In this document: positions 737 through 46,346 of the stretch, in pieces
Numbering within the stretch: position 1 is the first letter of the stretch
Layout of the letters: each line of letters starts with the position of its first letter
DNA from: a virus
Reading direction: 5' to 3' (one strand)
DNA length: 64,000 nucleotides
Virus record (IMG/VR): IMGVR_UViG_3300005253_000361
Location: 1-64,000 of that record
The notes under the pieces: generated by a model
Told to the model about the DNA's origin: nothing
Seen by the model: the letters and a program-made list of their open reading frames with translations, nothing else
Database searches by the model: none
Made by a program: the position numbers and the translations under genes

Positions 737-1024
737 TCGCGATGATTTAACGGGAGGAGGGGGATCGGCACGATTGAGGGTGGGGCTCGAGTCTTTAGGG
801 GTGGGGTGGCTCGGGCTCCACGTGTCGATCTGGTGATCTGATCGGGATTCGATCGGGTCTCCAGATGGACTCAACAGAAGCGGCAACCGTTGCCAACCTG
901 AATGATGTGGCCCACCGCTACGTCCCGGGAGAGGTGCGCCAGAGGGTGGTGTTTTTGAACCCCGGGGAGGGCGGCAACGATTACCAAAGGTGGCACTGAG
1001 GGGCCACGAAAGGAGAGGGGAACC

Positions 1025-1237
1025 ATGTTAGAGATAGCGCCTGCGAGCGAGTTCAAGCTGCGTCCCGGGATGTTGGTACTGGGAAAGGTCAACCACACTC
1101 AAGTACCGGGAAAGATCAGCAGGATCACCCGGGGAGAGGTTGTGGTGGATTTCTCCGGTACGGGCTACGGGTTCACGAAGGCGATGCGCCGGCGGAACCT
1201 CCAGGTCGTGTTGACCCGGAAGGCACGGATCATTTGA
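1025..1237 (+). CDS. small hypothetical protein
   Basis: Complete upstream hairpin + SD module; 70-aa ORF. Confidence 0.6.
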   Translation: MLEIAPASEFKLRPGMLVLGKVNHTQVPGKISRITRGEVVVDFSGTGYGFTKAMRRRNLQVVLTRKARII

Positions 1238-1825
1238 GCTTTCCCTCCAGTAAGCCGTTCCGGGCTCGAGATCGGGCCCCGATGCCGGTGATGCGACGGT
1301 ACAGATTCGAGGACTGGGGGACCGGTGTGCATCACGGTGAGCTCCAGGTTCCCGTGGGAGTGAAGCGCGACCACACCGTGCCGGAGAACCATGCCGGGAG
1401 AGAGCACTCGGAGCCGCGGCGATACCGGGTTGACCCCCGCCACCGGAACTGATCGGCAACGATTGCCGAAGGAGAGGATGATGAGAGATCTGATGTTGGA
1501 TCTGGCGTGGGACCTACTGGTCATATGTTTCGGGTGCCAAGCCATCTACTACGGTGTGCAGAGCTATGCGCTCGAGGTCGGCGGGGAGTACTTCGCAGCC
1601 TTCGGCGCCAACGGCTTGATGGTGATGGGGGTCGTCTTCATGGGGATCTCCCTGATGGGCCGGGTGGTGATGAAGCAGCCCCAACTCGAGGAGATCGAGG
1701 GATGAAATACCTGAATCTCTATCTGACCGAACTGGGACTCTTGTAGGCGCACCTAGCCCGTATCAACCCGCTTGGTGCGGGCGTGGGGTGCTGTAATGGG
1801 GCAGCACCTAGAACTAGGAGACAGC

Positions 1826-2176
1826 ATGAACACACCAACAAATACCGACGACATCATTGACTCGCGTGACGTGATCGAGGCTATCGACACGATGCGATAC
1901 TGCTGCGACGGGGCAGACGAAGCGCTGGATTTCGCCGCGCTGGTGAAATTCGCTGCCGAGGGGGAAGACTACGCCCCTGACTGGGCCTACAGTACGGCTC
2001 TAATTCGAGACAGCTACTTCGAGGAATACGCGCAAGAGCTGGCAGAGGACATCGGTGCTATCAAAGCTGACGCAGGTTGGCCCTGCGGCTACATCGACTG
2101 GGAACGTGCGGCACGCGACTTACAGATGGACTACACATGCGTCGATTTCGACGGCGTTACCTACTGGACTCGATGA
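1826..2176 (+). CDS. ArdA-like antirestriction (DNA-mimic) protein
   Basis: Very acidic; C-terminal YAQELAEDIG...GYIDWERAARDL matches the ArdA C-terminal motif pattern; AGGAG SD. Confidence 0.6.
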   Translation: MNTPTNTDDIIDSRDVIEAIDTMRYCCDGADEALDFAALVKFAAEGEDYAPDWAYSTALIRDSYFEEYAQELAEDIGAIKADAGWPCGYIDWERAARDLQMDYTCVDFDGVTYWTR

Positions 2177-2440
2177 GCGAACCTTGGCCGCTTCCAGACG
2201 AACGGGGGGCCGGATCTGTGCTGCTACGTGGAGGACCACGTGGCGTGCTCGTTCCCGGAGATCCGCCCGCACTACGAGTGATGCTGAGTACTACGCTCGA
2301 AGCCCCCGAGCTGAGGTTCGGGGGTTGGTGGGTCGATTTGGCAACGAGTGCCAAGCCCGGACTTGACGGTCCGGTTTAACCTGCTACTCTAATTGGCAAC
2401 ACTTGCCAGCTGAGGGGCTGGTAGAAAGGAGAGGGGAACC

Positions 2441-2788
2441 ATGACTGACTTCATGAAGTCAGTCATACACGTGGTGGATTCCCACCGCGGTGTCTACAGC
2501 GCGCAGTACTTCGCCGAGCGCTTCGGGTACGAGATTCGGAACCAGTGTCCGGATCTCGCTCAAGATATCGACGAGCTCCTGGCTGGCCCCGAGGGGAACA
2601 GCCAGTACTTCGAATCCTGGATCCGGGTGCTGGACGAGGGATCCGTTACCGACCTCGGAACTGGGGACCGGTGGATCATCCACGAGTCCGAAGGGATCTA
2701 CTTGGCACTCGACACCCTGGAGTGGTGCGAGGGCTGTGATTGGTTCCGCGGCCCGGAGTGTGGCGAGTGCGCCAGGTGGGCCGCCTGA
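2441..2788 (+). CDS. hypothetical protein
   Basis: Complete palindrome + hairpin + SD module upstream. Confidence 0.6.
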   Translation: MTDFMKSVIHVVDSHRGVYSAQYFAERFGYEIRNQCPDLAQDIDELLAGPEGNSQYFESWIRVLDEGSVTDLGTGDRWIIHESEGIYLALDTLEWCEGCDWFRGPECGECARWAA

Positions 2789-3728
2789 TGCCGCTCCTCA
2801 ACAGAGAACGGCCGGAGATCGGCGAGACTTGGTGCTACCCGGGGCACGAGTGGCGCCGGGTGCTCCAGATCCCCGAGAAGGCAGCGCGTGCGTGGGTCGA
2901 GTCGGTGGTGCCGGCCGGCACCAACATGGGCGCGGGGCCGATTGATCCCGGCGAGACCCGGGCGGCATTCCGGTGGATCTGGCTGAACAAGCTGGCTGTC
3001 GTGGTGGATAACGGCATCATGTGGCCCAGCCGACGCGATGGTGCCTCGATCGCCCTGTACGACCACGACGGGACCTACTGGGTGCTCCAGTACCGCGGGG
3101 ATACGTAGCTCTGATTGGCAACGATTGCCCGCTGAGGGGCGGGCTGAAAGGAGAGGGGAACCGTGCACACTAGTTTTTGGTTGGGCCTCGTGGCGGGGAT
3201 TCAGGTCTGCTGGTTCGTCATGTTTGGCTGCCGGCTGATCTTCGGCCGGGGAGTGATGGATCAGCTCCGGTGGACCTGGATCAACCTGAAGATTCGGATC
3301 AACAAGTGGGCGGCTCGGAGGCTTGCCGAACTCGGGGAGCGGGACTGATGCGCCCCCCGGGATTTGGGCTGGATATCGAGTTCGTCGTGATGACCGGTGG
3401 TGGGAGCGAGATGGATCTGCACCACCACGGAGGGGAGCGGGTCTACGGGTGCGTCGGGGTGGATGTGGCGTGCTTGCTCGGGATGGTGAGGGCGGTCTTG
3501 GTGCTGGATCCCGATGCCGAGGTCAAGATCCGAGGATGCACCTGTGGCAGTTGCACACGGGCTCGAGTGGATCAGGAGTTCGGCGAGGGGGCGACACCGT
3601 ACCCGGAGAAGCTGCCCCCCGAAGAACTGCACCTCGGGGAGGGCGATCCATTCAGCTGTGACTGCGAGACGAGGCTCTGATTGGCAACGATTGCCAGCTG
3701 AGGGGCTAGTGGAAAGGAGTGGGAACCG

Positions 3729-4127
3729 ATGAAATACCAACGAAAGATAGAGGTGCCGGCAGCGATCTGGATCCGTCTACGCAACGCCTCCCGGAACGTT
3801 CTCATGGCGGTGGATTGCGGCAGTTCGGATGAATCCATGATTCTGTATCTGGCGGCACTCAAGCAGGCTCTCAAGCGGGCTGATGCGTACGCCTTCGGGC
3901 AACCGTTGCCGGAGGAGCAGTCGGAGAGCCCCCTCGGTAGGACCCAGGGGGATTACCTGCCGCGCCGGATGAGCGATCTGGTCCAGCAGCTGGAGACCAA
4001 CATCCAGGGCTACCTCGATGGGGAGCTCCCGGGACCGGCGGCGATCTCGGGGATCCGGGAGGGGATGATGTCGATCCGGAAGGAGATCGCGAGTGACTAC
4101 TTGCGCCGACTGGAGAGGACCGGATGA
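3729..4127 (+). CDS. hypothetical protein
   Basis: Complete upstream module at 3682-3728. Confidence 0.55.
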   Translation: MKYQRKIEVPAAIWIRLRNASRNVLMAVDCGSSDESMILYLAALKQALKRADAYAFGQPLPEEQSESPLGRTQGDYLPRRMSDLVQQLETNIQGYLDGELPGPAAISGIREGMMSIRKEIASDYLRRLERTG

Positions 4128-5413
4128 GGCATCCGGGCTGGATGAGGTTCCGGGTAGTTCTGGCGGAGATCTGGATGCGGTGCCGACACCCCCGAACCCA
4201 CGATGAGTACCGGGTGGTATCCGAGTGGGTGGGCGGACAGATCTGGATCGAGCACCCCGGGGGGGTTGATCGGTATCTACGGATTGTCAAGCGTGCCGAG
4301 GAACTGGCAAGGATTGCCAAGGGGGAGTGATGTGGCATCTGACGAAGGAGAAGCGGGACCATTTCTGTGAGTGGCTCCGGGGGGTCGATGCGTTCACGAT
4401 CCCGTTGCCTGGGAGCTGGGGCCGAGACCACACCGCGATAGCGGTACGGTACGCCGAGGATTGCCGGGAGGTTGAGGAGGCCCAGACGGATTACGCGGCC
4501 GTCCGGGGGGCGGAGCTGTTCGCCTGGACAGAGCGAGTGCTGGCCGCCGGGGGGCTGAACGCGGAGCTGGTGCGTCAGGGGGATTTGTTGGTGTATGCGG
4601 TCGAGCAACGGGTGCCGTTCGTGCTGCCGAGGGAGAGAGAATCAAGTGGGCCACCGGAGGATGCGGGCCTATGTGAGTGCGGGCACGGGGACGTCTGGCA
4701 CGTAGAGGGGAGAGAGTGCATACACCAAACTTTTCGGGGCGGGGAACTCCTGTACTGCGAGTGTGAGAGGTGGGTGGCCCGATACCCAGAAGCGGAGGGG
4801 GAGTGATGACTGAAGTCGAGGGACCGCTGTTCGTGGATGACTGCAAGCACGGGAAGGATTGCTACGTCGGGACGGTCGAGGTGGTGCACCGCCGTGGTGC
4901 CGAGCTCGCCCGTTACGACGTGTACGTGTTCGATGACAGGATTCTTGGGCCGGAGGTGTGCCTGAGGTTCGGGGATGAGGGCGGGGAGTACGTCTCGCCC
5001 GGGCGCGTGGCGGATTTCGTCAAGACCGCGGGATGTCACTGGGCCGAGGGCTACCAGACCGAGTACACGGCGGCGCTGGAGCTCCTGATGGCCAGGGGAC
5101 AGATTGGTTGGCAACGGTTGCCGGCCAAGGAGGGGGATTGACCAATGAGATGCTCGTGTGACATGCAGGGCAACAAAGTCGTGAGCCTCTGTGGGGCGCA
5201 CGTCGAGTACGTGAGGCACCTGACGGAGCCACAACCGACCGAGCTAGAGAGGGCAATCTCGAAGGTATTCAACCTGGTTTGTCGCTGTGGGTCGACTCAG
5301 GTCGAGGTCGATAGCACGGTGGGGTACTCGAACCTCAGTGGGATGTGGGGGGGTGTCTCGTTGCGCTGCCTCGCCTGCGGGGCCACTGCCGAGATCTGGG
5401 ACACGGACCACTG

Positions 5414-5980
5414 ATGCGGATCAAGATCTACCCTGAGATCTGGCTTACGGCCGACACCCACTTCTTCCACAACTTCATGGCGGAGACGATCCGGGGGTTC
5501 TTCAGTGCCCACGAGATGAACGCGGAGATTATCCGACGGTGGAACCTCAAGGTTGGCCCGAAGGATACGGTGTACCACCTGGGGGACTTCGCTCTTGCGC
5601 CGGCCCACATGGTGCTACCGATTCTGGACCAGCTCAACTTCGCCCAGATGTTCCTCCTCCGGGGGAACCACGATGGGTGGCTGAACAAAGAGGCCAAGAG
5701 CCGGTTCCAGTTCGTGAAGGATTACCACTACGCCCACCTGGGGGACCAGCGGGCGGTGCTGTGCCACTACGGGTTTCGCAGCTGGAACAACGCGAAGCAC
5801 GGCGTGTGGAACCTCCACGGGCATTCACACGGGAACCTTCCGGAGCTAGGGAATCTGCAGACTGACGTCGGGATGGATTGCTGGGACCTGGCACCGGTGC
5901 ACGTGGATGAGCTCAAGGTTCACTTTGCGGGCCGGAGTAACGATCTGGAGGACCACCACGACCAGTCGTGGGACGACTAA
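5414..5980 (+). CDS. calcineurin-like metallophosphoesterase
   Basis: Motifs ADTHFFH, YHLGDF, LRGNHD, LCHY, HGHSH. Confidence 0.9.
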   Translation: MRIKIYPEIWLTADTHFFHNFMAETIRGFFSAHEMNAEIIRRWNLKVGPKDTVYHLGDFALAPAHMVLPILDQLNFAQMFLLRGNHDGWLNKEAKSRFQFVKDYHYAHLGDQRAVLCHYGFRSWNNAKHGVWNLHGHSHGNLPELGNLQTDVGMDCWDLAPVHVDELKVHFAGRSNDLEDHHDQSWDD

Positions 5981-6855
5981 ACATGCCGTGTTCCTGGGGT
6001 ACTGCTGATCGGAAGAAGGCAGATGGGGAGCTACTTCGTGAGGGCGGGGTAGTTTCCTGGGGAATCTACCCCAGGAGCCCGGCTGATTTGGCAATGGTTG
6101 CCGGGTGAGGGCCCGGCTGAAAAGGAGAGGGGAACCGATGAAAGATCCATTGGATGAGGCGTACCTAGCTGGACGTCGGGGAGCGGAGCAGAGGATTGAG
6201 CTACTTGAGCACTTGCTTCGCCTGCTTGCGGTTCAAGGTCTTCAATCGCAACAGTACCGGAACGACTCAGAGTTTCGGGGCACGGTGGATGAGGCGCTCG
6301 CGCTGGTGCCGACGCCCGGAGGAGTGCCGGTGTGGGACGAGGGGTACCAGGATTATGTATGAGCGACACTACGCCCGGATCACGATCCTGGACAGCCTCA
6401 ACGTCACGCGGCTGACCGAGATCTTGGTGGTTCGGTACCAGGGGTTCGAGATGGAACCGGTGTCGGATGGCCACTACGGGATACGGTCCGGCGAGAGTTC
6501 TGCGCGGACCTGCGGGAGATCCTGAAGGAAGAGCTCGGGTACACGGAGGAGACCCTCGCCCACATGGAGTGGGAGTTCTTCTGGCGCGAGGAAGCTCCCC
6601 GGAGAGAGGATATCGATGATGAGTAGCGAAGAATTGTGTCAGAGGTGTCGGCATCTGAGGAACTTGCACGGCAGGGCGTTCCATCCCTGCTGCAAGATTT
6701 GGGGCTGCGATTGCCAGAAGTTCGTGCCGCCTGTAGAGGCCCCGTTGCAGGAAGAGGACCTGGAGCCTGGGGACGTTGAGGTGACGATCGAGGAGGCTTC
6801 GGCCTTCTTGGACGAGGACTGACTGGCAAGTGTTGCCGATCAAAAGGAGGGGGAG

Positions 6856-7305
6856 ATGATACCGCGATTGAGACTCGCGAGGGTGGCGGAGTACGAACCG
6901 CCTCCCTATGGGGATGAACCAGCACGACACCCAGACCAGCTAGCTGAGTGGTTACGAACTCTGATAGATCCCGATAACGATACCGTGTCGGAGTCCTTCT
7001 GGGTGCTCCATCTAGACGCCCGAAATCAGATCATCGGGTGTGTTCGCCAGTCCGAGGGGGGATGGAGTGGTGCTGTGGTGAAGCCTCGGGAGGTGTTCGC
7101 TGCAGCTCTACTGAATGGAGCTCAGGCGATCGTGATAGCGCACAACCACCCGAGCGGAGATCCAACACCAAGCCACCAGGATCGGCAGCTTACAAATCAG
7201 TTGTGCGAGGCCGGCAAACTCCTGGGGGTGAAGCTGCTGGATCACATCGTTCTAGGGACTCCGGGGGGATACCTCAGCTTCAGAGAAAGCGGATTACTCG
7301 ATTGA
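6856..7305 (+). CDS. RadC-like JAB/MPN domain protein
   Basis: PREVF...AHNHPSGDPTPSHQD...LLDHIV motif. Confidence 0.9.
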   Translation: MIPRLRLARVAEYEPPPYGDEPARHPDQLAEWLRTLIDPDNDTVSESFWVLHLDARNQIIGCVRQSEGGWSGAVVKPREVFAAALLNGAQAIVIAHNHPSGDPTPSHQDRQLTNQLCEAGKLLGVKLLDHIVLGTPGGYLSFRESGLLD

Positions 7306-7614
7306 TCCACCACTACAGGAGGGGGAGATGAACGAACCAAATCTGCACCACACACTGGTGGGCCGGAAGATCGTGTCGGTCGACAGATTCACGGACGAGG
7401 AGCTCAGGGAGATGGGCTGGTACCGGGATGGGGGCGAGGTGATCCTGATCCTGGACGACGGCAGCTTCCTGTTCGCGCAGAGCGACTCCGAGGGGAACGG
7501 GGCCGGGGCCATGATGCATGGCATCGATGATGAGTGCCGGCTGGTCCGGAGGGGCGGAGAGGTCTGAGTGGCAACACTTGCCAGCTGAGGGGTTGGCAGA
7601 AAGGAGAGGGAACC

Positions 7615-8340
7615 ATGCAGGATTTCTGTCGGGAACTTATTACCGCCACCTGGTCGCAACCGTACTTCATGTACTACGGGGACGCAGACCGGGATACCGA
7701 CGCGTTCACATTCAGCCGCACTCGAGACTCCAGTGTGCTGGAGATCAGCAACTTTGACACGGTCTACCGAGATCTCGAGGAGCGCTTCCCGAATGACGTC
7801 TGGATCGAGCAGTCCAGCCACTTCCTGTGCGGGTGGGTGGACAACATCGTGGTTCGGATGTTGACCGCGGGGGATGGTCCGCTTGGGGGGCCGCAACCGA
7901 CTGCGGCCGCCAGTGCGGTTCGGGAGTGGATCGATGCCCTGGCGGATTACCCGGTGGCGGACGACGGCGCGTTCAGCGAGGCCGAGTACGACGCCAAGGT
8001 CGAGACTCTCAGGTGGAACTTCGGGTGCGACCTCGAGGAAGCCGAGCTCGTGCTCCGGTGGATGCACCGCTGCGACACCCCTGGGGTGGATGCCTTCAGC
8101 GACGACTTCTGGCCCGAGCAGAGCGACGTCGATGTGGCGCTCCTGGAACTGGGGCTCCGGATGCAGTGCCGGGACTGCGGGGACGTGCTGGAACCGGACG
8201 AGGTGACGGAGCGACGAGGGGTCTGTCGGTTCTGCACCTACGGGTATCGGATCCGAAGCTGGTTCCGGGGCCTCCAGTCTCGGCTCCAGACCGAGTCCTT
8301 CCTGCGGCAGCGGAAGCGGTTCGGAATCACGCGGTACTGA
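7615..8340 (+). CDS. conserved phage hypothetical protein
   Basis: Complete upstream module; RDSSVLEISNF and LADYPVADD segments. Confidence 0.6.
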   Translation: MQDFCRELITATWSQPYFMYYGDADRDTDAFTFSRTRDSSVLEISNFDTVYRDLEERFPNDVWIEQSSHFLCGWVDNIVVRMLTAGDGPLGGPQPTAAASAVREWIDALADYPVADDGAFSEAEYDAKVETLRWNFGCDLEEAELVLRWMHRCDTPGVDAFSDDFWPEQSDVDVALLELGLRMQCRDCGDVLEPDEVTERRGVCRFCTYGYRIRSWFRGLQSRLQTESFLRQRKRFGITRY

Positions 8341-8371
8341 TTGGCAACGGTTGCCCAGGAGGAGGATTGAC

Positions 8372-8887
8372 ATGGGCTGGACAGGACACCCAAATACCAA
8401 CAAAACAGCACACGAGTTGGTCGTCGAAGAGATTGAATGGGGCTCCCCGCAGCGGCACAAGGTCGTGGCGCACTCGGGGAAGTATTACGCCGTGGAGAAC
8501 CTGCAGACAGGGGAGGTCTGGGGACTGGTGGCGTTGATCGACCGCGGCGACGGGGAGATCGCGACGAAGCTGGTCGACGAATCCATGGGGCCCTACGAGA
8601 CCGAGTGCCCAGCTAGTGTGCTGAACCGACTGACGGAGCCGGCGCCGAACGACTATGCCCGGCAGTGGAGACAGAAGTGCCGGGAACGTCTGGCCCGCAT
8701 GGCCAAGCAGCCGAGGCTGAGACCGGGGGATCAGATCAGGTTCGCCAGGCCGGTTGAGTTTCGGGGCGGCATTGAGGTTTCGGACATGCACTTCGTCGGG
8801 GGCTTCACGTTCTTGGCGGGACACCTGCGGCTCAAGCTGCCGCGCAACTGGAAGACGCGCTACGAGTGGGAGCTCGTGGCTCACTAA
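8372..8887 (+). CDS. DUF6927-like protein
   Basis: MGW start; DESMGPYETECPASVL...ARQWRQKCR motif. Confidence 0.55.
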   Translation: MGWTGHPNTNKTAHELVVEEIEWGSPQRHKVVAHSGKYYAVENLQTGEVWGLVALIDRGDGEIATKLVDESMGPYETECPASVLNRLTEPAPNDYARQWRQKCRERLARMAKQPRLRPGDQIRFARPVEFRGGIEVSDMHFVGGFTFLAGHLRLKLPRNWKTRYEWELVAH

Positions 8888-8901
8888 GGAGGGGGAAACG
8901 T

Positions 8902-9309
8902 ATGAGTCGAATCACCGATCTCAACATGAGCATCGCGGACGTCTGCGTGATGCTGTCGGACAACAACCCGGGAGCTCTCACGGTCGTGATGGGAATCGTC
9001 CAGCAGGCCAAGACGATCGATCCCGATTCCGTCATGGGGTACTTGGGACCGTTGCTCGATCTCGACACCCTGGAGCTCTACGGACCGGATATCTGGATCC
9101 TCTACAAGGATGTGTGTGGCGAGGATCTGGTCATGATACTGGGCGTGCTGAGGGCACGCCAGCTAGGTCTCATCACCGATGCATCCGTGAAGGCCGCGGT
9201 GGCCGGGACTGAGGTGCTCGATCCGGAGGCTCTGTTGGAGCAGGTCCAGAAGCGGCTCCCGAAGTTTGGGCTGCCCGCAGAAGAGGTGCCGGAAGAGGCG
9301 GCGACCTAA
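8902..9309 (+). CDS. conserved phage hypothetical protein
   Basis: Strong SD; NNPGAL...LYGPDIWILYKDVC segment. Confidence 0.6.
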   Translation: MSRITDLNMSIADVCVMLSDNNPGALTVVMGIVQQAKTIDPDSVMGYLGPLLDLDTLELYGPDIWILYKDVCGEDLVMILGVLRARQLGLITDASVKAAVAGTEVLDPEALLEQVQKRLPKFGLPAEEVPEEAAT

Positions 9310-33734: not shown

Positions 33735-33785
33735 TTTGGCGTTCAGGGGTGCGGCAGAAGGGGTTGTGCCGTGTAACCCGCGGCC

Positions 33786-37381: not shown

Positions 37382-37410
37382 GGAGCGTTGTCCTCAGTCG
37401 GTAGGGTTGG

Positions 37411-38280: not shown

Positions 38281-39478
38281 GTCAGCCAGGCGTGGTTCGG
38301 CTGGGACCGCACCCTCCGGAGTCCCCCTTCGAGCTCCTCTACTCGGAGCTCCAGAGCCGCAAAGCGCTTCTCCCACGCTTGCGCCTCAGGCGAACGCAAT
38401 CCGGAGGCCGTCCCGTCACAGTGCCCGCAGCTGGACCCGGAAGTGGGGTCCACTCCATGGGGGCAGCTCACGGGCAGGGGAGTCGTGCGGGTGATCCACT
38501 CCTTCTCCCGCCAGGGCTTGCCACCGTTCGGGTGGTAATCCCCGCAGAAGTCACAGGCGAAACCCAAGCCATAGTCCACCTGGTAATAGAGGCCTTGTCC
38601 GCAGTCATCACACCGTCCTAGATGGCTCATGCTGGGTTCCTCGGTAGCGAGATCACCTCCTCATCCCCGCCGGGTGACCAAGCTGCGTAGACGTAGTAGA
38701 GCGACCAAGCGGCAAAGTAAAAGTCGCAGGGTTTGGACCCTGGGTGCCGCTCCAGCTCGACAACGTCCACAAGGGCCTCTCCATTACACTCCATCTCCTC
38801 AGCGAGCAGCTTGTTCCAGCTGGTGGTACGGCCGTAGCCGGCGTTCATCTCCCGGTCCATGTCGGGGTCGCTCATGCCGCATCCTTAGTCGTAATATCCT
38901 CGGCCCGGATGACGAATTCCAGGCCGCTCAACTCCTGCGTCGCCGGCACCTTGACCCGCACCAGACCTTTCCCCTGGCGGTTGAATACATTGACCACCTC
39001 GACTTTCACGGTTCCGACCTGCCCCACCTCGAGCCCCGGGGTTTCTCGGGCCTGCACGAGAGCCCGCCACTCGATCATCTCATCGTACGAAAGGGAATCA
39101 GCGCCCGACTGACTCCAGAAGAACGCACGCCCCAAGTGGCACTCCCGCAGCAGAGCCTCCCTAGAAACCTCGGAGTCAATCTGAACCTCTGCGTCCCGGT
39201 CGAGCATCAAGCGATACATGCCGCCCGGTATACTGGTATGGATCGGAACGTCCACCACGGCGCAGCCTTCGAAATTACGTGGGCAATGCACAACTGCAGG
39301 AATCCGTACTGTCGTACCGACCTTGAGCTCGCTCATGCCGCATCCTCCTTCTGCGCCTCGGCCAGGAGGGCATCCGCGATATCAAGCGCCTTCTTGGCCG
39401 CCACCTCGACCGCCACATAAGTTTCAGCCGGGTTAGCGGCGAGCCCCGCCATCACGAAAACTGCAATCTCGAGACGGT

Positions 39479-39796
39479 TCATCGGCCGGGGTCCACGCTG
39501 CGCCCGGGATCCACCTGATCCATCGGGCCACCCGTGACCGACGCCGACTTGGTCGGGATCGCGTCGGCCGTCAGATCGGGAGCCTCGACAACCTCATAGT
39601 TCTTCACCCGGTCGGTGTCGAACCATTCTTGGGAGGCCGTGACGGCACCCGTATCCCTGCTTACCACACCGCACTCCAGCATCACGCGAGCGCACCCGTG
39701 CAGCCAGTACGTGATCGCCAGCGCGATCCCCTGGAAGCCCGTGACGGGGTCCCGGTAGGTCTTGCCAAGCGTGATTCCTGTGTTGGGCATACTCAT
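39479..39796 (-). CDS. conserved phage protein
   Basis: RDPVTGFQGIA...YWLHGC motif. Confidence 0.55.
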   Translation of the reverse strand: MSMPNTGITLGKTYRDPVTGFQGIALAITYWLHGCARVMLECGVVSRDTGAVTASQEWFDTDRVKNYEVVEAPDLTADAIPTKSASVTGGPMDQVDPGRSVDPGR

Positions 39797-39854
39797 GATT
39801 TCCACTTCCTTTTGGTTGTAGTCGCCCTGACTCACCCTGGAGCCGAGTACGAAC

Positions 39855-41009
39855 TTATGCTGTCGGTTGTTGGCGAATTGCGTCTTCTGGAGATTGAGCC
39901 CGAGCCAAGTGCTGCTGGATCGCCGCCATGGAGGTCCCGTTACCCTCAACTACACCGGCATACTCGTCAGCCTCACGCGCGGCCACAGGAAAGAACCGCA
40001 GAAACAGATCCCTCACCTGCTCGGGGCCCGGGCCTTCAATCTCCCAACGCTGATCTATGCGTCCGGCACGCACCAGCGGCGCCGGTAGAAGGTCTGCATC
40101 GTTGGCGGTGATAACCAGTAGCCGCCCCTCGGACGCGAGCGGCCCATCTATCGTGTTGAGCAGCCCTGCCAGCGTGACGCTCGTGTCGGTGCCGAAGTCG
40201 ATCTTCTCGATGTCCTCCAGCACCACCAGTGATCGCCCCGGCAACTGCGCCATGGCGCGAGCCAACGTGGCGTCATTGAAGTCATCCCCCTGCGACAGCG
40301 TGAGCACATACAGGGGCATTTGGTAGTGGCCGGCGATCGCCTGGACGAGCGAAGACTTGCCGTTTCCAGGGGGCCCCACGAGCAGGTATCCACGCCGATA
40401 CGGCAAACCCCGTTCCACGTGCCACGATCGAGCGTTCCGGAACCAATCAACATCATCGACGATCTCGTCCATCAGACCGGGGCGCAGCACTACCGATTCG
40501 AGTGGTCGCGGTTCGCCGACACGGATCTGTGACCATCCACCGTTCTGGTTATTGATGTACGCGACCTGCTTGCCGCGGCGGCGCAACATTGCCGCATCGA
40601 CCACGTCGTGCACGAGGGCTCGAATCGGGGACGGATCACGTCCCAGCGCTCGCAGGGTGATGGTCCGAGCCTTGGCGCCGGCATAGCCAACCTCTTCGAG
40701 AGTCTGGTGAAGAAGACACCAACGATTCTCGTAACGGAACACGTGCACGCCAAGGCCGGGCTCGAGCACCGCACGCGGCTCGTCTCGTTCGCCCTCGTAA
40801 GCCACGAACCCCGACAGCCTCCGGCAGCTACGGCCGTAGCTGGTCTCGGCGAGCCACTCGCCCATCCAACGCACGAACTCGGTGTCCATCGTGTAGAAGG
40901 ACGCGGTAAAGAATCTATCGAACACGTAGCGGGGCAGGTAGCGCACCGCAGCGGCTGCGGCACCGAGCGCCATGAGGTACAGACCGCCCTCGAAGAACTG
41001 GTTCTCCAT
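39855..41009 (-). CDS. BCS1-like AAA+ ATPase with N-terminal TM segment
   Basis: GLPYRRGYLLVGPPGNGKSS, LEDIE, AGLLNTIDG, RAGRID; LEPGLGVH resembles BCS1_N. Confidence 0.85.
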   Translation of the reverse strand: MENQFFEGGLYLMALGAAAAAVRYLPRYVFDRFFTASFYTMDTEFVRWMGEWLAETSYGRSCRRLSGFVAYEGERDEPRAVLEPGLGVHVFRYENRWCLLHQTLEEVGYAGAKARTITLRALGRDPSPIRALVHDVVDAAMLRRRGKQVAYINNQNGGWSQIRVGEPRPLESVVLRPGLMDEIVDDVDWFRNARSWHVERGLPYRRGYLLVGPPGNGKSSLVQAIAGHYQMPLYVLTLSQGDDFNDATLARAMAQLPGRSLVVLEDIEKIDFGTDTSVTLAGLLNTIDGPLASEGRLLVITANDADLLPAPLVRAGRIDQRWEIEGPGPEQVRDLFLRFFPVAAREADEYAGVVEGNGTSMAAIQQHLARAQSPEDAIRQQPTA

Positions 41010-41980
41010 TACGCCGTCTCTTTCTTCTTCTCGAACATCTTCGTGTAGTCCATCATGGGCCAGAACTGTCCCGCTACTCGGCCCGGGATCTTGTCGTAGG
41101 TGAATGGGAGCAGCCAGGGGTCCGGCTCGACGTGCACGATGTAACGGTGCTGGGTCTCGACGGAGCCGGCGTGCACGGTGAAGGCAGGCGTCACCACCTT
41201 GGCCCACCCGTGGCAGACATCCCACGCCATCGGGAGACTCAGCAGCTGGATCGTCGCCTTGCCGCCTCCGGGAGTGATCTCCTCCATGATCCGGATCCAT
41301 TCCTCGGCCCGGTTGATCGTGGCGCCACACTGGAGTTGACAGGTCAGGTGGAACATCACCCGGGCGCTCGCGTACCGGAGCATGTTGTTCGTGGCCGGAT
41401 GGGCCTTCACCTGCAGTACCTCTACAGGACGCTCCGGGGGATTCGCAATACTGTAGGGGCCGCCCACGTAGGGCAGCTCCAGCGCGCCAGGGGTGTTCTG
41501 GGCCGACTGCCAGATGGGGTCGCAGTACTCCGGCCAGTGCTGGTCAAAAAATCCGACACAACAAGGCGGGAAACCCAATAGATCTCCAATGGCGTTGTGG
41601 TTGGACTCCTCATGGGCTGCCTCGAAGGCATCGAGATTTGCATCATCGGGCGACACCACGGTGAACCAGGAGAAGTTCGGGTCACCCTCACGGAGCGGTG
41701 CGTGCCGGCGGTGGCTGAACCCATCGCTGGGGCCGACCGTAGTGAGCCGGCGCCACTTGAGTCCGTACCGCGCGAGTTTCTCGTACATCCTGTCACCGCC
41801 CACGTTCGGGATGTGGCAGGTACCGCAGGCACGAACACCATCGGCGGCCGTCTTGAGCTCCGCTTCCCAGCAGACACTGGAGGCCAGCTTGAAGGCCGGA
41901 CCCCAGTAGTCGCGCGCCTCGGAGGAGTGGTAGGTGATGCGGGTGAAGCTCGGGGCTTCGAAGTTCGGTAGGAGCTTCAT
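41009..41980 (-). CDS. hypothetical protein with GxLLGFPxCC motif (DUF483-like)
   Basis: IGDLLGFPPCCVGFF, HLTCQLQC. Confidence 0.55.
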   Translation of the reverse strand: MKLLPNFEAPSFTRITYHSSEARDYWGPAFKLASSVCWEAELKTAADGVRACGTCHIPNVGGDRMYEKLARYGLKWRRLTTVGPSDGFSHRRHAPLREGDPNFSWFTVVSPDDANLDAFEAAHEESNHNAIGDLLGFPPCCVGFFDQHWPEYCDPIWQSAQNTPGALELPYVGGPYSIANPPERPVEVLQVKAHPATNNMLRYASARVMFHLTCQLQCGATINRAEEWIRIMEEITPGGGKATIQLLSLPMAWDVCHGWAKVVTPAFTVHAGSVETQHRYIVHVEPDPWLLPFTYDKIPGRVAGQFWPMMDYTKMFEKKKETA

Positions 41981-42312
41981 CGGAGCCTCGCCAACCACAC
42001 AACCTTGCACGCGATGTGTAGGAACTGGTCTTCGTGAACGTTGATCCGGTTCTCGCACTTGGCGAAGTCGATCAGCCAATGCACCACCGTCTCAGCCGCA
42101 CCGAGATAAACGTTGCTGGTGATCGCCCACACGACACCGCCGTGAATGAGAGCGTGAGAGGATAGCCAGTAGGGCCAGCAAAGCGTGCAGGTTGCCCCCG
42201 GCGGTGTCGTGGTTCTGTTGTGTCGGTTCTTGCCCTTCGCCATCGCGTCGGACTGTAGGACGAAGTCCGCCAGGGCGTGCCCGATCAGTAGCGCGAAGAA
42301 TGTCTCGATCAT
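41977..42312 (-). CDS. DUF3307 membrane protein
   Basis: GHALADFVLQ, HALIHG, HWLIDFAK, DQFLH. Confidence 0.8.
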   Translation of the reverse strand: MIETFFALLIGHALADFVLQSDAMAKGKNRHNRTTTPPGATCTLCWPYWLSSHALIHGGVVWAITSNVYLGAAETVVHWLIDFAKCENRINVHEDQFLHIACKVVWLARLR

Positions 42313-42802
42313 TCGCCTAAACCTCCAGAGTCTCGGTCCAGTCCGACGGCAGCCGGGGCAACAGCTCATCCCTCAGCTCCCTATAGCTTTCCAGCGCGAC
42401 CGAATAGAGCCACTCCCGGCCGACAGGATCTCCGTAGGTCATCACAAGAGGCGATCCGTCTGCGCAGAAGGTGTTCTGGATGATCTTTTGCTGCAGGTAC
42501 ACCACCTGACCCAGCAGACGGATCGTTTGGTCTCGGTCGCGCAGGTCCATCTCAGCCTCCATCACACTGTCGATGGGGGTTGGTCCTGATTCTTGCCAAT
42601 CTTCTCGAGTTAGGATCATTGCTTGCTCTCCGGGTGAGGTAGAACAACCACCTCTTTGTAGACGATGTACTCGGGTAAGCCGGTCCAGCCGCAGGGCCAA
42701 CAGATCACGTCACCGCTGAACTGGATGTCGCTGCTGTTCAGATGGTCGAAGGTCTCCTCGTACACCTCGGTGCTGTCGCACTCCGGACAGTGGTACTTGC
42801 CG

Positions 42803-45319
42803 TCAGCCATTTGAATCTCCGTGGTCGTCGTAGTTGCCGTGCGGGACGTTGGCGTGCTCCAGTGGGTTCTTCTGGTGAGCCGCGTCCGCGTGGTCGCCGT
42901 GGTCGTCGTAGTTGCCGTGGGCCACATTCGCGTGGGCGGGATCGTTGGGATCGACAAGCTTCAGTTGGCAAGGGTTGCCGACCGGCGCATCCTCAGTCCG
43001 GACGAACTCAGAGTTCTTCGCCTCGCCTCGCCAGGCCGAGGGACGATACGTGTTGGCTTTCCGCAGCCAGCGGAACGGATCCCAGGGCGGTTCGTTCTGT
43101 TGGATCGAGTGGTAGAGACCATTGGCGTCGAACCGGTGCGCCACCTGGTCAAGTGTCGTGAGATTCGGGATGGTCCGGTGGAGATGGTCCGCTACCGCCT
43201 GATAGAGGCCGGCCCAGCCACGACAGAAGCGGGTGCGGTTGCGCCAGTCACCATCGATCGCGTGACCGTTGCAGTGGCCCGTGCAGACTGCCCACCAGCG
43301 GCACACCTGATCGCCGTCACGTCCATCCACACCGCCGAGGCATCCACCGTGCTCATGCGAGACGCCCCGCAGTATCTCGTAGCGAGCCTCGGAGAACTTC
43401 TTGTCCTCGGCTACCTGGTACGGGATCCCCCCGGCCGCATACAAATGTTCGCAAACTCCGATTGCCGAGTCCTCCTGGATGGTCCGTTCGGCAGCCGTGT
43501 GGAGAGGATCGCATTGGGTCCGAACGCATGTAAATTGGCCGCACCCGAGCAACCCGTCCATCGTTTCCGCGATGGCGGGAAACTGGTAACCCCGACTCAG
43601 ACTCCACGGCACAAACTCTGCCCAGAAGGCTGCCATATCGGTTTCGGAAAGCTCCCAGTCAGAGCGCTCCGGCTCGGTATCGATATGGGCGGGGTTGAGA
43701 CGTGGATTGCGAATACCGTGGTCGGCGAGCCAGTCGATGAACCGCTTCAACTCATCGATCTTCCGACGGTTCTGCCCCGGCACCAGACCCGGGCCGGCGT
43801 TAGCCTTGGTCAGGCAGATGATCAGACCGGGGGGCCGGTGCTCCCTGCAGAGCCGCAGGAGTGTCCGGAGCGTGGCGGCTGTGCCCTCCAGGGTGGTGCG
43901 TAGGGTGTTGCCCATCTTACGAACATCGTTCAGGCGCCCCCAGCCGTCGATCGAGAGCCCCACGTTGACGTTGTACCGCTTGAACATGGCCATGTGGTCG
44001 TCGTCGACCAGCACGCCGTTCGTCTGGATCGCGGCCTTGCCGAACCGCTCGTGGTTGATCCGAAAGATCTCCTCGAGGTCGGCCTTCTTGATCAGAAGAG
44101 GTTCGCCGCCGTGCGCGGTAGCTACCGCGGCGCCGCCCCGATTCTCTTCCTCCCAATCCCACTGGGCATTGATTGCCCGAATGGCCGCGTGGATATCGTA
44201 GTCGTGGGCCTTCTTGACGTTGCCGAGATCCCTGGCGGTGTTCTGGTAACAGTCCACCGAAAGAAACCCTCCAGCCACAAAGGTCTTACTGGTCGTCTCG
44301 ACATCATAAACTTCAGGGTCTCGCTTGTGTCCCATAGGCTCGATGGCCGTAATCTGAGCCCGGGGCGTCTTCGAAACTGCACCCGTAATCGCCACTTTGC
44401 GTGTGAGCGCCGGCCGACAAAGAGAAGCGAACCGTGCAACCTCAGGTCGGCCGCCCCGCATATAGACCCACCATGAATCGTCCGCCTTCTGGGCGATCCG
44501 GACATCGAACCCTAACTTCTCCCAGCAGTACCGAACCTCGTCAATAGCCTCCTGCTCCTTTTGGCAGATGCCAAGACCATTTCGGGTGCCTTCAGCGTCA
44601 AACATGCCTGCGAGCCACCCCTTAATGAATGGAGTACTCCTACCCATCGGAGGGGTTTCGGCGAGATCCATTAACGCGGTCAGGTCATCATTCCGGTGCA
44701 CGCGAGTAAGGTGACTGTAGGAAAGTTCGGCCCCCGTATCCTTTCGCTTGTGGTGCACGCGAGAAAGTTCAACGCCGAAAAGAGATTTGGCGTACAACTC
44801 TACTCGGTCCAGGAGTTCTTGATCCTTCGAATAGACCTTGAAAGTGCTTACGGGACCGCGCTTGCATACGTAATCCCCCCAGCTGCCGTCCCCAAAACTG
44901 ACCCCAGATAGCCACCCAGCTCGATAGTCGCTGTCCTGAGTAATGTCCTCCTTAACGGGGTCACACAAATGCAGGAACGCATCGCCTACCCGTAGGTCCC
45001 TCGTCCGGACCACACAATGGCGGTCCTGCCGCTTAACGAGCCACTCATGATCCGGTGTCGACTTGACCTCCCCTGCAGTCGTGGTGATGCGAATCAACCG
45101 CTCACGCTTGCGGATGAGGCGAATAACTTCCGTATCAACGTACCGTCGATACTTCTTGCCCTCCACAGCATCGAGTTCCCAGGAAACCAGGCGGTCCCCA
45201 ACCTCGACAGACTCGATGGGTTTCCAACTACCGTCGGTCAACAGCATCAGTGTGCCCTTGGCCAGACAGTGGCTACACGACAGGTTGCAGGCGCGCGTCA
45301 ACTTGGTTGATTGCGGCAA
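42803..45319 (-). CDS. radical SAM/SPASM peptide-maturase-like enzyme with intein and C-terminal His/Asp repeats
   Basis: CNLSCSH|C motif, HGGEPLL, IQTNG, GLSIDG, SPASM-type Cys array (CRWWAVCTGHC...RFC); TTG start with strong SD. Confidence 0.9.
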   Translation of the reverse strand: MPQSTKLTRACNLSCSHCLAKGTLMLLTDGSWKPIESVEVGDRLVSWELDAVEGKKYRRYVDTEVIRLIRKRERLIRITTTAGEVKSTPDHEWLVKRQDRHCVVRTRDLRVGDAFLHLCDPVKEDITQDSDYRAGWLSGVSFGDGSWGDYVCKRGPVSTFKVYSKDQELLDRVELYAKSLFGVELSRVHHKRKDTGAELSYSHLTRVHRNDDLTALMDLAETPPMGRSTPFIKGWLAGMFDAEGTRNGLGICQKEQEAIDEVRYCWEKLGFDVRIAQKADDSWWVYMRGGRPEVARFASLCRPALTRKVAITGAVSKTPRAQITAIEPMGHKRDPEVYDVETTSKTFVAGGFLSVDCYQNTARDLGNVKKAHDYDIHAAIRAINAQWDWEEENRGGAAVATAHGGEPLLIKKADLEEIFRINHERFGKAAIQTNGVLVDDDHMAMFKRYNVNVGLSIDGWGRLNDVRKMGNTLRTTLEGTAATLRTLLRLCREHRPPGLIICLTKANAGPGLVPGQNRRKIDELKRFIDWLADHGIRNPRLNPAHIDTEPERSDWELSETDMAAFWAEFVPWSLSRGYQFPAIAETMDGLLGCGQFTCVRTQCDPLHTAAERTIQEDSAIGVCEHLYAAGGIPYQVAEDKKFSEARYEILRGVSHEHGGCLGGVDGRDGDQVCRWWAVCTGHCNGHAIDGDWRNRTRFCRGWAGLYQAVADHLHRTIPNLTTLDQVAHRFDANGLYHSIQQNEPPWDPFRWLRKANTYRPSAWRGEAKNSEFVRTEDAPVGNPCQLKLVDPNDPAHANVAHGNYDDHGDHADAAHQKNPLEHANVPHGNYDDHGDSNG
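44252..45268 (-). mobile_element. intein (339 aa) with LAGLIDADG-type homing endonuclease
   Basis: Starts CLAKGT...WKPIESVEVGD; WLSGVSFGDGS and WLAGMFDAEG blocks; ends VYDVET...FVAGGFLSVD before extein Cys. Confidence 0.9.
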
Positions 45320-45344
45320 GGTTCCCCCTCCTTTGGCCGACTCC

Positions 45345-45716
45345 TCAGTCGGCGCGAACTCGAAATGGCGTCTGCTTCTCCAGATAGATAGTGTGCTGGT
45401 GGCCCGGAATACCGGGCTCGATAGTCGGGTAGAGCGCGAACGCCTGAAGGACCTCGCAGGTCATCCCGACCGGATAGCGCCGCAAGAACCACCTGGGGGC
45501 GAAGCGTTGCTTAACCGCCTGCCACCAATCAGTTGGCCACTCGCAGTGGACCTCCTCGACAGTCTTCCCCAGCACCCGCATCTCAACGTCAACAACGAGC
45601 TCCTCGAGCTGCAGGTCCCAGTGGGCAGTCGGCAGGTCAAAAAGACGCCCGTGCAGAATCTTCCGTTGGTGAAAGCGCAAGACGTCGAGGACGACCTTTT
45701 CGGTCTCGATGTTCAT
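45345..45716 (-). CDS. hypothetical protein
   Basis: Hairpin + SD upstream; WPTDWWQAVKQRF. Confidence 0.55.
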   Translation of the reverse strand: MNIETEKVVLDVLRFHQRKILHGRLFDLPTAHWDLQLEELVVDVEMRVLGKTVEEVHCEWPTDWWQAVKQRFAPRWFLRRYPVGMTCEVLQAFALYPTIEPGIPGHQHTIYLEKQTPFRVRAD

Positions 45717-45738
45717 AGGTAGGTTCCCCCTCCTTTGA

Positions 45739-46005
45739 TCAGCCCCTCAGCCGACCTCGAGTAGCCCTCGCTCGCTCCAGCTGAGCGGACAAGATGTCGA
45801 GCCACTCCTGGGCCCGCTCAAGAGTCATACGGCGAGTGGCCATCACCTCGCCATTGACGATGTACTTGTCAAAGCCCCCCTCGGGGACCGGCACGTTCCA
45901 CTCGAGGTCGACCTTGACCGCCGAGCCGGTCTCACCCCAGGCCTCGATCGGGACGAGATTCGGGCCGTGAATATCGTCGAGTTCTACGAGATGTGCAGAT
46001 GCCAT
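45739..46005 (-). CDS. hypothetical protein
   Basis: Hairpin + SD upstream. Confidence 0.55.
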   Translation of the reverse strand: MASAHLVELDDIHGPNLVPIEAWGETGSAVKVDLEWNVPVPEGGFDKYIVNGEVMATRRMTLERAQEWLDILSAQLERARATRGRLRG

Positions 46006-46346
46006 ATAGGTTCCCCCTCCTTTTTCCCTCGGTCGGCCGGTCCCTCAACCGACGCAGCTACTCTGCTAAATCACCGCGCCACTGTCCAGTGAACTCTCAC
46101 CGTCAGGAAGTTTTTATTTCCTCGCCCGTACGCTCGTTCAGCATCACGGTATTGCCGCAGACCGGGCAGCTGAACCGATCGCTCGTCTGGGGATCCCGAT
46201 GGGGTGGTACCCCGGTGAACATGTGGGCATAGGCGAGCCCGCCCCGGATGCCCTCGCAAGCAGCCCGCCAGACGGTTTCGCCGCAAGCCGCGCAGTCGAT
46301 GAAATCCTCCTTACGGAACAGCACTTCTGTCTCCATCTTCCCCCTC

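Follow-up and report, generated by a model that had tools for sequence, protein, structure and literature searches.

Eighteen hairpins that display the word UGAGG(G) in their loops stand just upstream of ribosome-binding sites in the genome of an uncultured phage, IMG/VR record IMGVR_UViG_3300005253_000361. The hairpin is real, and selection acts on it: it is a sense-strand helix whose loop presents a constrained word beside the ribosome-binding site. The full record is linear, 117,123 bp long, 67% complete (CheckV), and has a G+C content of ~62%. The window is the stretch of 64,000 nt at positions 1-64,000 of that record; coordinates refer to the window unless they are marked as genome positions. 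Twelve of the hairpins with a Shine-Dalgarno (SD) sequence behind them lie in the window, all of them where a first-pass annotation, which had claimed at least 12, had placed them, and six more lie in the rest of the record. Genes were called by codon-usage scoring and SD sequences rather than with a standard caller, and the stop-codon, gap, and arm assignments given here rest on those calls. The record has three gene arms (+ strand 1-33.4 kb, − strand 33.8-99.7 kb, and + strand 100.2-117 kb), and in 18 of 18 copies, across all three arms, the hairpin is oriented with the transcribed strand, as had been proposed. The copies, each named by the position of the loop T (e.g., 997, 2411, 3133), are as follows, with scores in bits from a covariance model built from 17 of them:

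990-1007, + strand: copy 1 (997), stem GTGGC/GCCAC, 8-nt loop ACTGAGGG; start codon 1025; 16.7 bits.
2403-2424, + strand: copy 2 (2411), 8-bp stem TTGCCAGC/GCTGGTAG, loop TGAGGG; start codon 2441, of a 115-amino acid (aa) ORFan; 31.1 bits.
3127-3144, + strand: copy 3 (3133), stem GCCCGC/GCGGGC, loop TGAGGG; GTG start codon 3163; 32.8 bits; predicted fold P 0.66.
3693-3710, + strand: copy 4 (3699), stem GCCAGC/GCTAGT, with a C·A mismatch in the window allele; start codon 3729; 27.7 bits.
6100-6117, + strand: copy 5 (6106), stem GCCGGG/CCCGGC, loop TGAGGG; start codon 6138; 31.5 bits.
7578-7599, + strand: copy 6 (7586), stem TTGCCAGC/GTTGGCAG, one G·U pair; start codon 7615 (241 aa); 30.6 bits; predicted fold P 1.00.
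12392-12417, + strand: copy 7 (12402), 10-bp stem; start codon 12443 (58 aa); 26.9 bits.
17979-17996, + strand: copy 8 (17985), stem GACGAC/GTCGTC, loop TGA serving as the upstream stop codon; start codon 18014; 30.7 bits.
21663-21680, + strand: copy 9, stem TGGCCC/GGGCTG, two G·U pairs; start codon 21694 (GP88-family protein); 21.1 bits.
46036-46053, − strand: copy 10 (46047), stem GTCGGT/ACCGGC; start codon 46005 (88 aa); 24.8 bits.
45737-45756, − strand: copy 11 (45749), stem GGTCGGC/GCTGATC, two G·U pairs, with the upstream stop codon in the 3′ arm; start codon 45716 (123 aa); 25.6 bits.
45336-45353, − strand: copy 12 (45347), stem GCCGAC/GTCGGC, loop TGAGGA; 26.5 bits.
Genome 100148, 101056, 105960, and 107759, + strand, and 98776 and 97223, − strand: loop T of the six hairpins beyond the window.
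Genome 107752-107770, + strand: the 18th copy (107759), 5-nt loop TGAGG.
6024-6059, + strand: possible extra copy (6039) of uncertain status, with a 15-bp G·U-rich stem and a TGAGGG loop, no SD sequence behind it, 67 nt 5′ of copy 5; only 13.1 bits.

The word TGAGGR is not over-represented as such, with 87 occurrences in the window and 94.6 in shuffled sequence. The enrichment appears when words are scored as loops. When each hexamer in turn was taken as a 6-nt loop and flanking stems of at least 5 bp were scored, TGAGGG ranked first among the hexamers tested, with such a stem at 16 of 87 sites (binomial p = 5.9e-17) against a background of 2,013 in 234,186 positions (0.86%). The distribution of stem lengths is bimodal: 147 of the 164 TGAGGR sites in the genome are flanked by 0-4 pairs and 17 by 5-15. 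Two of the 16 TGAGGG hairpins have no SD sequence (6039, and 57828 within the tape-measure gene), where ~0.75 would be expected by chance. The complementary word, CCCTCA, has a stem at only 10 of 87 sites because G·U on one strand becomes A·C on the other; read on that strand, 6 of the 16 hairpins fall under 5 bp. To the standard hairpins, the set of 18 adds four variants: 45347 (loop TGAGGA), 997 (8-nt loop), 3699 (stem mismatch), and 107759 (5-nt loop). Their loops read TGAGGG in 15 cases and TGAGGA, TGAGG, and ACTGAGGG in one each, so the UGAGGR loop, described by the first-pass annotation as invariant, holds for 16 of 18 copies and fails in 997 and 107759. Copy 997 also carries a population variant, G>A at 1001 in its loop, in two sequencing runs. 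Under the covariance model, 16 copies reach 21.1-32.8 bits, and copy 997 reaches 16.7 bits; the next-best matches are at 16.4 bits (18911-18940, within a gene) and 15.5 bits (the 18th copy), so no large population of hairpins is hidden in the record.

The stems differ from copy to copy and stay paired. In a gap-free alignment of 17 copies (136 cells), standard pairs occupy 83.8% of cells, compared with 60.3% when partners are shuffled, and the covariation score is 0.738, compared with 0.253; 0 of 500 shuffles reach either value. Sliding the 3′ partners by 1-3 columns leaves 24%-50% of cells paired. Seven of the eight pairs show double changes. RNAalifold, with no structure supplied, finds the same six pairs and a further U·G pair that closes the loop to GAGG, with double changes in six of the seven pairs; in the lone TGAGGA copy, the closing U·G becomes U-A. 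The stems quoted in the first-pass annotation are correct, and the covariation that it proposed to check with a covariance model is significant against shuffled partners. Its statement that the stems remain paired, G·U pairs included, is borne out by 10 G·U pairs and breaks down at the C·A mismatch of copy 3699. That mismatch is polymorphic. The population data consist of contigs only, from three DNA runs of one study labeled marine sediment metagenome, possibly including the source sample, and two of the runs (X2 and X3) read G at 3708, which restores a C:G pair. The inner six pairs comprise 89 Watson-Crick pairs, 10 G·U, 1 A·C, and 2 others (asymmetry p = 0.012). Since G·U outnumbers A·C by 10 to 1, the folded strand is the sense strand, in keeping with the strand specificity originally claimed.

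The position of the hairpin relative to the start codon is equally regular. The sequence AGGAG begins 0-14 nt past the 3′ arm in all 17 copies measured, and within 5 nt in 12 of them; the larger gaps are 6-7 nt (3699, 97223, and 105960) or 11-14 nt (12402, 46047, and 100148). The placement in front of ribosome-binding sites was therefore described correctly from the outset. Counted from the loop T, the start codon is 25-42 nt away (27-33 nt in 13 of 17 copies), and the spacing of hairpin, SD sequence, and start is kept also in copies whose flanks are unrelated. The hairpin is invariably 5′ of the SD sequence and never encloses it. Behind the hairpins, AGGAG is embedded in a long conserved block, (A)AAGGAG(A/G)GGGGAAC(C). 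The window holds 36 AAGGAG(A/G)GG blocks, all co-oriented with genes, and of the 11 that end in GGAAC, 10 belong to hairpin leaders. At each of the 36 sites of this long uniform block (AAGGAG(A/G)GGGGAG or ..GGAAC(C)), at 7312-31690 and elsewhere, a start codon follows after 0-6 nt. Predicted folds of 105-nt contexts are dominated by the hairpin in 12 of 17 copies.

Several hairpins are part of a larger junction module that includes a palindrome, TGGCAA-N3/4-TTGCC, with fixed arms and a free spacer, the reverse of the free arms and fixed loop of the hairpin. Palindrome sites occur at 275-16990 (e.g., 1455-1468, 6825-6838, 8341-8354, 9312-9325, 11464-11477, 12660-12673, and 13793-13806), often between a stop codon and an SD block and abutting both. 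Judged by its sequence, the pattern resembles a DNA operator of the extended start-associated sequence (ESAS) or stoperator kind. In six copies (2411, 3133, 3699, 6106, 7586, and 12402), the palindrome shares an arm with the hairpin: in copy 2411, for example, the 5′ arm of the hairpin doubles as the 3′ arm of the palindrome, and in copy 12402, the 3′ arm doubles as the 5′ arm. In predicted folds, the two helices are mutually exclusive in RNA. The complete modules are 57 nt long, and most of the differences between them fall in the palindrome spacer, in which stop and start codons are used, and at compensating stem positions:

2387-2443, + strand: reference module, with stop codon, TGGCAA-N-TTGCC palindrome, UGAGGG hairpin, AAAGGAGAGGGGAACC, and start codon.
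3109-3165, 3675-3731, and 7562-7618, + strand: further modules (family D6), 81%-86% identical.

The word also occurs without a stem. A 12-mer, TGAGGGGAAGGA, in which TGAGGG is fused to the SD sequence, has 10 copies in the genome, all sense, and none in the reversed control; in all seven copies inspected, it lies 19-23 nt before the start codon. Most are on the − arm, often with CGAC directly before, a sequence that also forms the 5′ arm of hairpins 17985, 45347, 97223, and 98776. In addition, 25 of 68 sense-strand copies of TGAGGG fall in the 10% of the genome called intergenic. Altogether, ~28 leaders carry UGAGG(G) near the SD sequence, and 18 of them show the word on a helix. UGAGGG is thus a start-associated word in its own right. 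The first-pass annotation had missed these 10 copies, together with the six shared palindrome arms and the hairpins beyond the window. Three examples are the following:

11312-11323, + strand: stem-less TGAGGGGAAGGA, 19 nt before the start codon.
24650-24661, + strand: stem-less TGAGGGGAAGGA, whose TGA is the stop codon of gene 24458-24652; next start codon 24667.
36053-36064, − strand: stem-less TGAGGGGAAGGA, whose word can pair with CCCTCA 10 nt 5′.

Two other roles for the word were considered and rejected. TGAGGG is not a promoter element: the flanks 5′ of the stem-less copies are unconserved beyond CGAC, and the G·U asymmetry requires the 5′ arm within the folded strand. Nor is the loop the target of an anti-loop small RNA: sense CCCTCA is rare, with a single intergenic copy (36075-36080) that pairs locally. 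Separately, a promoter-like, A+T-rich repeat of 73 nt (88% identical) at 13538-13610 and 19673-19745 ends with an SD sequence and start codon; one copy has TGAGGG and the other TGAGAG in the same place.

What might act through the hairpin? The loop appears to be under separate selection, because the stems have turned over fully while the loop stayed. The explanation that we tentatively favor, and to which we would give slightly less than an even chance, is that a trans-acting factor reads the loop and acts on translation initiation through the UGAGG(G) hairpin. The 18 copies would then be cis-acting RNA elements in the 5′ leaders and intercistronic junctions of phage mRNAs, in each of which a 5- to 10-bp helix of free sequence would display the fixed word, with a predicted GAGG tetraloop closed by U·G. 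A sequence-specific reader would recognize the word; it would most likely be an RNA-binding protein of the phage or, with lower probability, a component of the 30S subunit. When bound beside the SD sequence, the reader would switch translation initiation, and hence mRNA survival, so that ~18 mostly small accessory or regulatory genes could be controlled as one regulon. The stem-less leaders, in which the word touches the SD sequence directly, would be read by the same factor. That the element works as RNA rather than as single-stranded DNA, that its reader acts in trans, and that the effect is on translation are each steps that we infer.

This explanation can be extended, although we consider the extended version unlikely as a whole. 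A private regulon could exist in which a dedicated phage factor reads UGAGG(G) on the hairpin (18 genes) or fused to the SD sequence (10) and thereby times a lysogeny switch, the radical-SAM operon, and swappable ORFan cassettes. In the six palindrome modules, a ribosome terminating at the stop codon that abuts the palindrome would expose the loop, such that the same DNA would be both a repressor operator and an RNA switch. Use of the exclusion between palindrome and hairpin as a switch is speculation based on predicted folds. If correct, the arrangement would define an undescribed general class of phage "start-associated hairpin" operators, each lineage with its own loop and reader.

Several observations weigh against a loop-reading factor. 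First, the copies are paralogues of one genome, and the shuffle statistics are inflated by this relatedness; the slid control answers the problem only in part. We take the pairing to be selected because the slid control, the compensating differences among the 57-nt modules, and the 3708 allele argue so. Second, the tolerance of G·U pairs fits a sense-strand hairpin of single-stranded DNA equally well. Third, the hairpin is out-competed in 5 of 17 predicted folds: by the palindrome hairpin at 2411 (predicted fold P 0.03), 3699, and 6106, by a shifted register at 46047 (P 0.11), and by an upstream complement of the loop at 45749 (P 0.01). Predicted accessibility of the SD sequence is very uneven (0.04-0.80). 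Hence, thermodynamics neither proves nor excludes the fold at every site. Fourth, two copies lead only to open reading frames (ORFs) of 8 and 18 codons, which a mobile leader module fits as well as a regulon. Fifth, Pfam and PHROG scans of 56 distinct proteins, of ~200 called, found no recognized RNA-binding regulator. Sixth, the runs listed for the phage sequence are three DNA runs and no RNA run. Finally, the element occurs in no relative searched.

The searches for relatives took several routes. Megablast of 1-20,000 and 44,000-64,000 against 50,697 phage records gave no match, and the large terminase is at most 30% identical to that of any named phage. Pattern scans of IMG/VR gave no match for hairpin plus SD sequence, 15 single matches for the SD block alone, all chance on inspection, and three single chance matches for a stem-less 16-mer. 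A search for terminase loci with the single protein found nothing among viral contigs, and one with the C-terminal half of the radical-SAM protein found no locus. An alignment-based terminase search (alignment A2) found 36 loci among viral contigs, all ~30% identical except one on a 4.6-kb contig with 45% GC; 17 in metagenomes, the best 87% identical but only 2.3 kb long and without the leader; and one in genomes, at 34% in a Sphingomonadales metagenome-assembled genome, from which no host can be called. Further terminase homologues (P0002-P0006) are 52%-56% identical, one of them encoded on an 86.5-kb contig, and another, P0001, has a cluster of eight members. The covariance model found no element in the 670,099 bases of the terminase loci (best match, 16.7 bits), and the motif is missing from five complete, distant relatives with genomes of 94-102 kb. 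Four of these five (terminase ~30% identical) were also put through an unbiased loop scan, which found no covarying conserved-loop hairpin; its only finds were repeated promoters or coding repeats, in which the stems are identical. One distant relative (98 kb, with terminal repeats) has seven long repeats at positions 26091-45467 of its own genome, on the − strand, each with a TTGACA-type box, a fixed small hairpin, and an apparently leaderless ATG; as a covarying hairpin this was rejected, since it is a repeated promoter unit. Rfam, which the first-pass annotation had suggested alongside related phages as a place to look, gave no match at the gathering score in the 64-kb window and, at E≤1 in 900-8000, three weak matches to eukaryotic or archaeal small RNAs, none at a hairpin. 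A full-text literature search did not find the loop word as a phage hairpin, and broader literature searches returned nothing relevant.

There is also a simpler possibility, which we regard as rather unlikely but worth setting beside a loop-reading factor: the hairpin could act only in cis, with no reader, insulating a strong SD sequence from upstream coding sequence and giving the cistron a protected 5′ end after transcription starts or after endonucleolytic processing. In Gram-positive bacteria, a 5′ stem-loop and a strong ribosome-binding site act as mRNA stabilizers. The constant position of the hairpin 5′ of the SD sequence fits such a role, as does its isolated folding free energy of −8.5 to −14.9 kcal/mol in 16 of 17 copies (−4.7 kcal/mol for the mismatch allele of 3699). 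Several copies come after long non-coding gaps, and hairpins 46047 and 105960 lie ~50 nt 3′ of a promoter-like motif, CGGTGAGAGTT, and would thus be near a transcript 5′ end. An insulator acting in cis fails to explain why the loop is fixed while every stem position has turned over, and why the word is kept in 10 stem-less leaders. Moreover, to our knowledge, GAGG closed by U·G is not among the classes of specially stable loops. As for the motif itself, the conserved word CGGTGAGAGTT(T) occurs on the − strand at 37468, 46102, 49006, and 62787 in the window and at genome 70498, 73563, 75817, and 88233 outside it, and on the + strand at genome 105905. It lies on the transcribed strand, either where genes end or between genes, and in many cases its TGA follows the stop codon closely and in frame; it could be a promoter, terminator, or processing signal of the late arm.

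Could the hairpin instead couple termination to reinitiation, with the loop UGA stopping the upstream ribosome and the strong SD sequence recapturing it? The loop TGA is the stop codon of the upstream gene in 6 of 18 copies (997, 12402, 17985, 45347, 101056, and 107759). The first-pass annotation had noted several such cases (12404, 17987, and 45345), which our own gene calls reproduce: the loop of copy 12402 ends gene 12075-12404, and that of copy 45347 ends gene 45345-45716 ahead of the TTG start codon (45319) of an 838-aa radical SAM/intein protein. The TGA at 997 ends a weakly supported 44-aa ORF. Four more copies (2411, 3133, 3699, and 7586) have an in-frame stop codon 21 nt 5′ of the loop. 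However, several copies come after non-coding gaps of 97-555 nt; for at least six (2411, 6106, 46047, 97223, 100148, and 105960), the gap is 97-500 nt and no called ORF stops at the loop. Coupling also needs neither a helix nor GGG. Reinitiation, which had been among the roles first suggested, is therefore not the general role, and we consider it very improbable as the explanation for the hairpin.

A further possibility is that the hairpin is a processing site, at which a phage or host endoribonuclease cuts in or beside UGAGGG and so separates cistrons or inactivates early messages, as T4 RegB cuts GGAG. The displayed word has the geometry of a loop, which RegB prefers according to PMC3014915. 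Most copies lie within arms of small, early-type genes, and a gene for a HicA-like protein, which scores 21 bits against a Pfam cut-off of 27, lies beside that for an RtcB RNA ligase. That link is by gene neighborhood only, and RtcB is more usually linked to tRNA repair. In addition, no RegB-like protein was found in this phage, and a cut in the loop would leave the SD sequence and the gene intact, so that inactivation would not be an obvious outcome. We therefore consider processing improbable. The KTSC protein, which the first-pass annotation had listed with the HicA-like protein among candidate binders, is confirmed as an annotation, as are the helix-turn-helix (HTH) proteins and RtcB, and nothing ties any of them, or the HicA-like protein, to the hairpin.

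The likeness to lambda boxB that was first proposed holds for shape and fails for placement. In the nut boxB, N reads a conserved, purine-rich loop carried on a short helix, of which the stem matters as structure and the loop as sequence; boxB occurs once per early operon, behind the promoter and with a boxA partner, and acts on RNA polymerase. An N-like protein that binds the UGAGG(G) loop and modifies RNA polymerase could account for the short helix and purine-rich loop, and some copies do follow long gaps in which promoters must lie. The 18 copies here are not one or two sites behind early promoters: each is locked to a ribosome-binding site, 0-14 nt before an SD sequence and 25-42 nt before a start codon, many stand between tightly packed cistrons, and six have a stop codon in the loop. 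The aligned flanks hold no boxA-like second conserved word besides the palindrome and the SD sequence, and terminators in 1-20,000 are not above chance (5 found, 9.2 expected), with none at a hairpin. An antiterminator site is thus extremely improbable. The hairpin is not an intrinsic terminator either, as it has no U-tract and purine-rich SD sequence comes after its 3′ arm. A promoter scan of the same 20 kb found two promoter-like sites (4.2 expected), none at a hairpin.

Which genes do the hairpins lead? Eight of ten hairpin-led proteins have no PHROG family, and eight of ten have no Pfam family. The identified products are the GP88-family protein, the radical-SAM/intein protein, and an Xis-like HTH_17 protein ahead of the integrase; another is nucleoside deoxyribosyltransferase-like, slightly below the Pfam cut-off. 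At genome 98411-98790 on the − strand, hairpin 98776 is followed by an SD sequence and an 8-codon ORF whose stop codon overlaps (ATGA) the start codon of the Xis-like HTH_17 gene, which runs into the integrase gene. The hairpin and the 8-codon ORF may be a leader-peptide arrangement.

In the contigs listed, cassette borders appear to fall within leader modules. In two runs, among the variants listed, a co-occurring strain has 214 other letters in place of 11495-12418 (922 nt, four small genes), with flanks that differ at 7 and 25 positions. On the left, this replacement has its border 3 nt into the start codon that comes after a leader; on the right, the border is at the base of hairpin 12392-12417. 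The other points of contig divergence, among those listed, include 2415 (within hairpin 2, where the variant reads as a hairpin with an 8-nt loop containing the same word), 4805 (at an SD sequence and start codon), 9301 and 9340 (which flank one leader), and 11489. Some of these junctions may be assembly breaks, as contigs from one study break at repeats. A duplicated SD sequence with the first ~13 codons of a gene, at 11478-11535 and 14441-14498 (88% over 58 nt), forms a stub beside a leader (family D7) and is consistent with cassette shuffling.

These borders raise the possibility that the modules are linkers for recombination at the DNA level: the shared leaders would supply homology for cassette exchange, in the manner of the promoter early stem-loop (PeSL) cassettes, and the hairpin would be a passenger or a single-stranded DNA structure. 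The replacement with both borders in leader modules, the gene-start stubs, the lack of PHROG families among most hairpin-led proteins, and a small extra tyrosine recombinase at 31042-31620 all fit. Yet homologous exchange needs identity rather than a covarying stem, the hairpins have neither a promoter nor a U-tract terminator, unlike PeSLs, and a linker leaves unexplained both the kept SD spacing amid unrelated flanks and the asymmetry between G·U and A·C. We judge this role quite improbable and, under a loop-reading factor, would read the position of leaders at cassette borders as a consequence of their shared sequence, not as their primary function.

The rest of the record gives the setting of the element. 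Both + arms are made of small genes. The − arm carries the tail genes, including a 1,719-aa tape measure, and encodes the radical-SAM protein with its intein, capsid, portal, large terminase, DnaB, a helicase, SbcCD, and the integrase. In the portal gene (genome 70559-73486), matches to foreign domains suggest an insertion there too. At the left end of the record (104-179) are short tandem-like repeats with the unit GATCGG/TTGGATGATCGG. Other features are the following:

42803-45319, − strand: radical SAM protein, 838 aa, interrupted by an intein with a LAGLIDADG domain.
28445-30643: cluster of KTSC, HTH_3, HicA-like protein, and RtcB RNA ligase.
31042-31620: separate small tyrosine recombinase, 192 aa.
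Genome 104704-104776, + arm: tRNA-Ile (GAU), the sole tRNA found in the record.

What would a reader of the loop imply? Reports of conserved start-associated motifs in actinobacteriophages go back to 2011. In this phage, the element upstream is a helix kept by selection, with an unchanging word in its loop, and the specific claim is of a sequence-specific reader at the ribosome-binding sites of ~28 genes. The hairpin copies supply a natural series of compensatory mutants. Such a reader, if there is one, would represent a new translational regulator or RNase of phages, and the element would be a compact, orthogonal expression tag. The apparent coincidence of leaders with cassette borders bears on how phages swap accessory genes without breaking expression.

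How does the element compare with known systems? In T4, according to PMC3014915, RegB recognizes a short SD-like word that is cut best when unpaired, and RegA represses ~30 messages at sites that are A+U-rich and unstructured. The likeness lies in phage factors that act on many early translation-initiation regions at once. No homologue of either was found in this phage, and whereas the RegB word is the SD sequence itself, the word here sits 5′ of it. In T4-type phages, each PeSL cassette is a sigma70-type promoter with a terminator stem-loop (Arbiol et al. 2010, PMC2839356). PeSLs, too, are small, repeated stem-loop modules that flank ORFans in plastic regions; they mark insertion or replacement borders between close strains, a property that the leader modules here may share. 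The module here is instead a junction of stop codon, hairpin, SD sequence, and start codon, without a promoter or a U-tract.

The closest parallel is the start-associated sequence (SAS) of Cluster K mycobacteriophages, a 13-bp motif at the position of the ribosome-binding site with 11-19 copies per genome and the consensus GGGATAGGAGCCC (Pope et al. 2011, PMC3203893). According to that paper, SAS is a conserved, asymmetric block with an AGGAG core and bases that pairing with rRNA does not explain; its many copies share one orientation, lie mainly in non-structural arms, and sometimes hold the upstream stop codon. Both Pope et al. and a later paper on Cluster EF describe the function of such motifs as unknown (PMC3203893, PMC7302621); for Cluster K, a reader from either the host or the phage has been considered. 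The long SD block of this phage is itself a SAS-like motif, an element of this kind that belongs to a different family: it reads AAGGAG(A/G)GGGGA.. and TGAGGGGAAGGA, not GGGATAGGAGCCC. Homology is not implied, and this phage has an additional RNA helix 5′ of the block.

About half of the Cluster K SAS copies have an ESAS just 5′ of them, a 17-bp inverted repeat with conserved arms and a variable spacer, whose authors state that departures in the arms do not support RNA pairing and favor a DNA-binding protein (PMC3203893). In Cluster EF Microbacterium phages, ten conserved motifs at ribosome-binding sites have an upstream element centered on a well-conserved hexamer (Jacobs-Sera et al. 2020, PMC7302621). 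That hexamer was considered as a hidden hairpin and rejected: in AnnaSerena (MH271292), its five exact copies have stems of 3-4 bp at best, and by sequence it looks promoter-like rather than like a covarying hairpin. The published upstream inverted repeats, as described in these papers, thus do not behave like RNA (PMC3203893, PMC7302621). This phage also places an inverted repeat immediately 5′ of a SAS-type block at the ribosome-binding site, and its ESAS-like part is the TGGCAA-N3/4-TTGCC palindrome, not the hairpin, whose 5- to 10-bp arms are free and covarying and whose loop is fixed.

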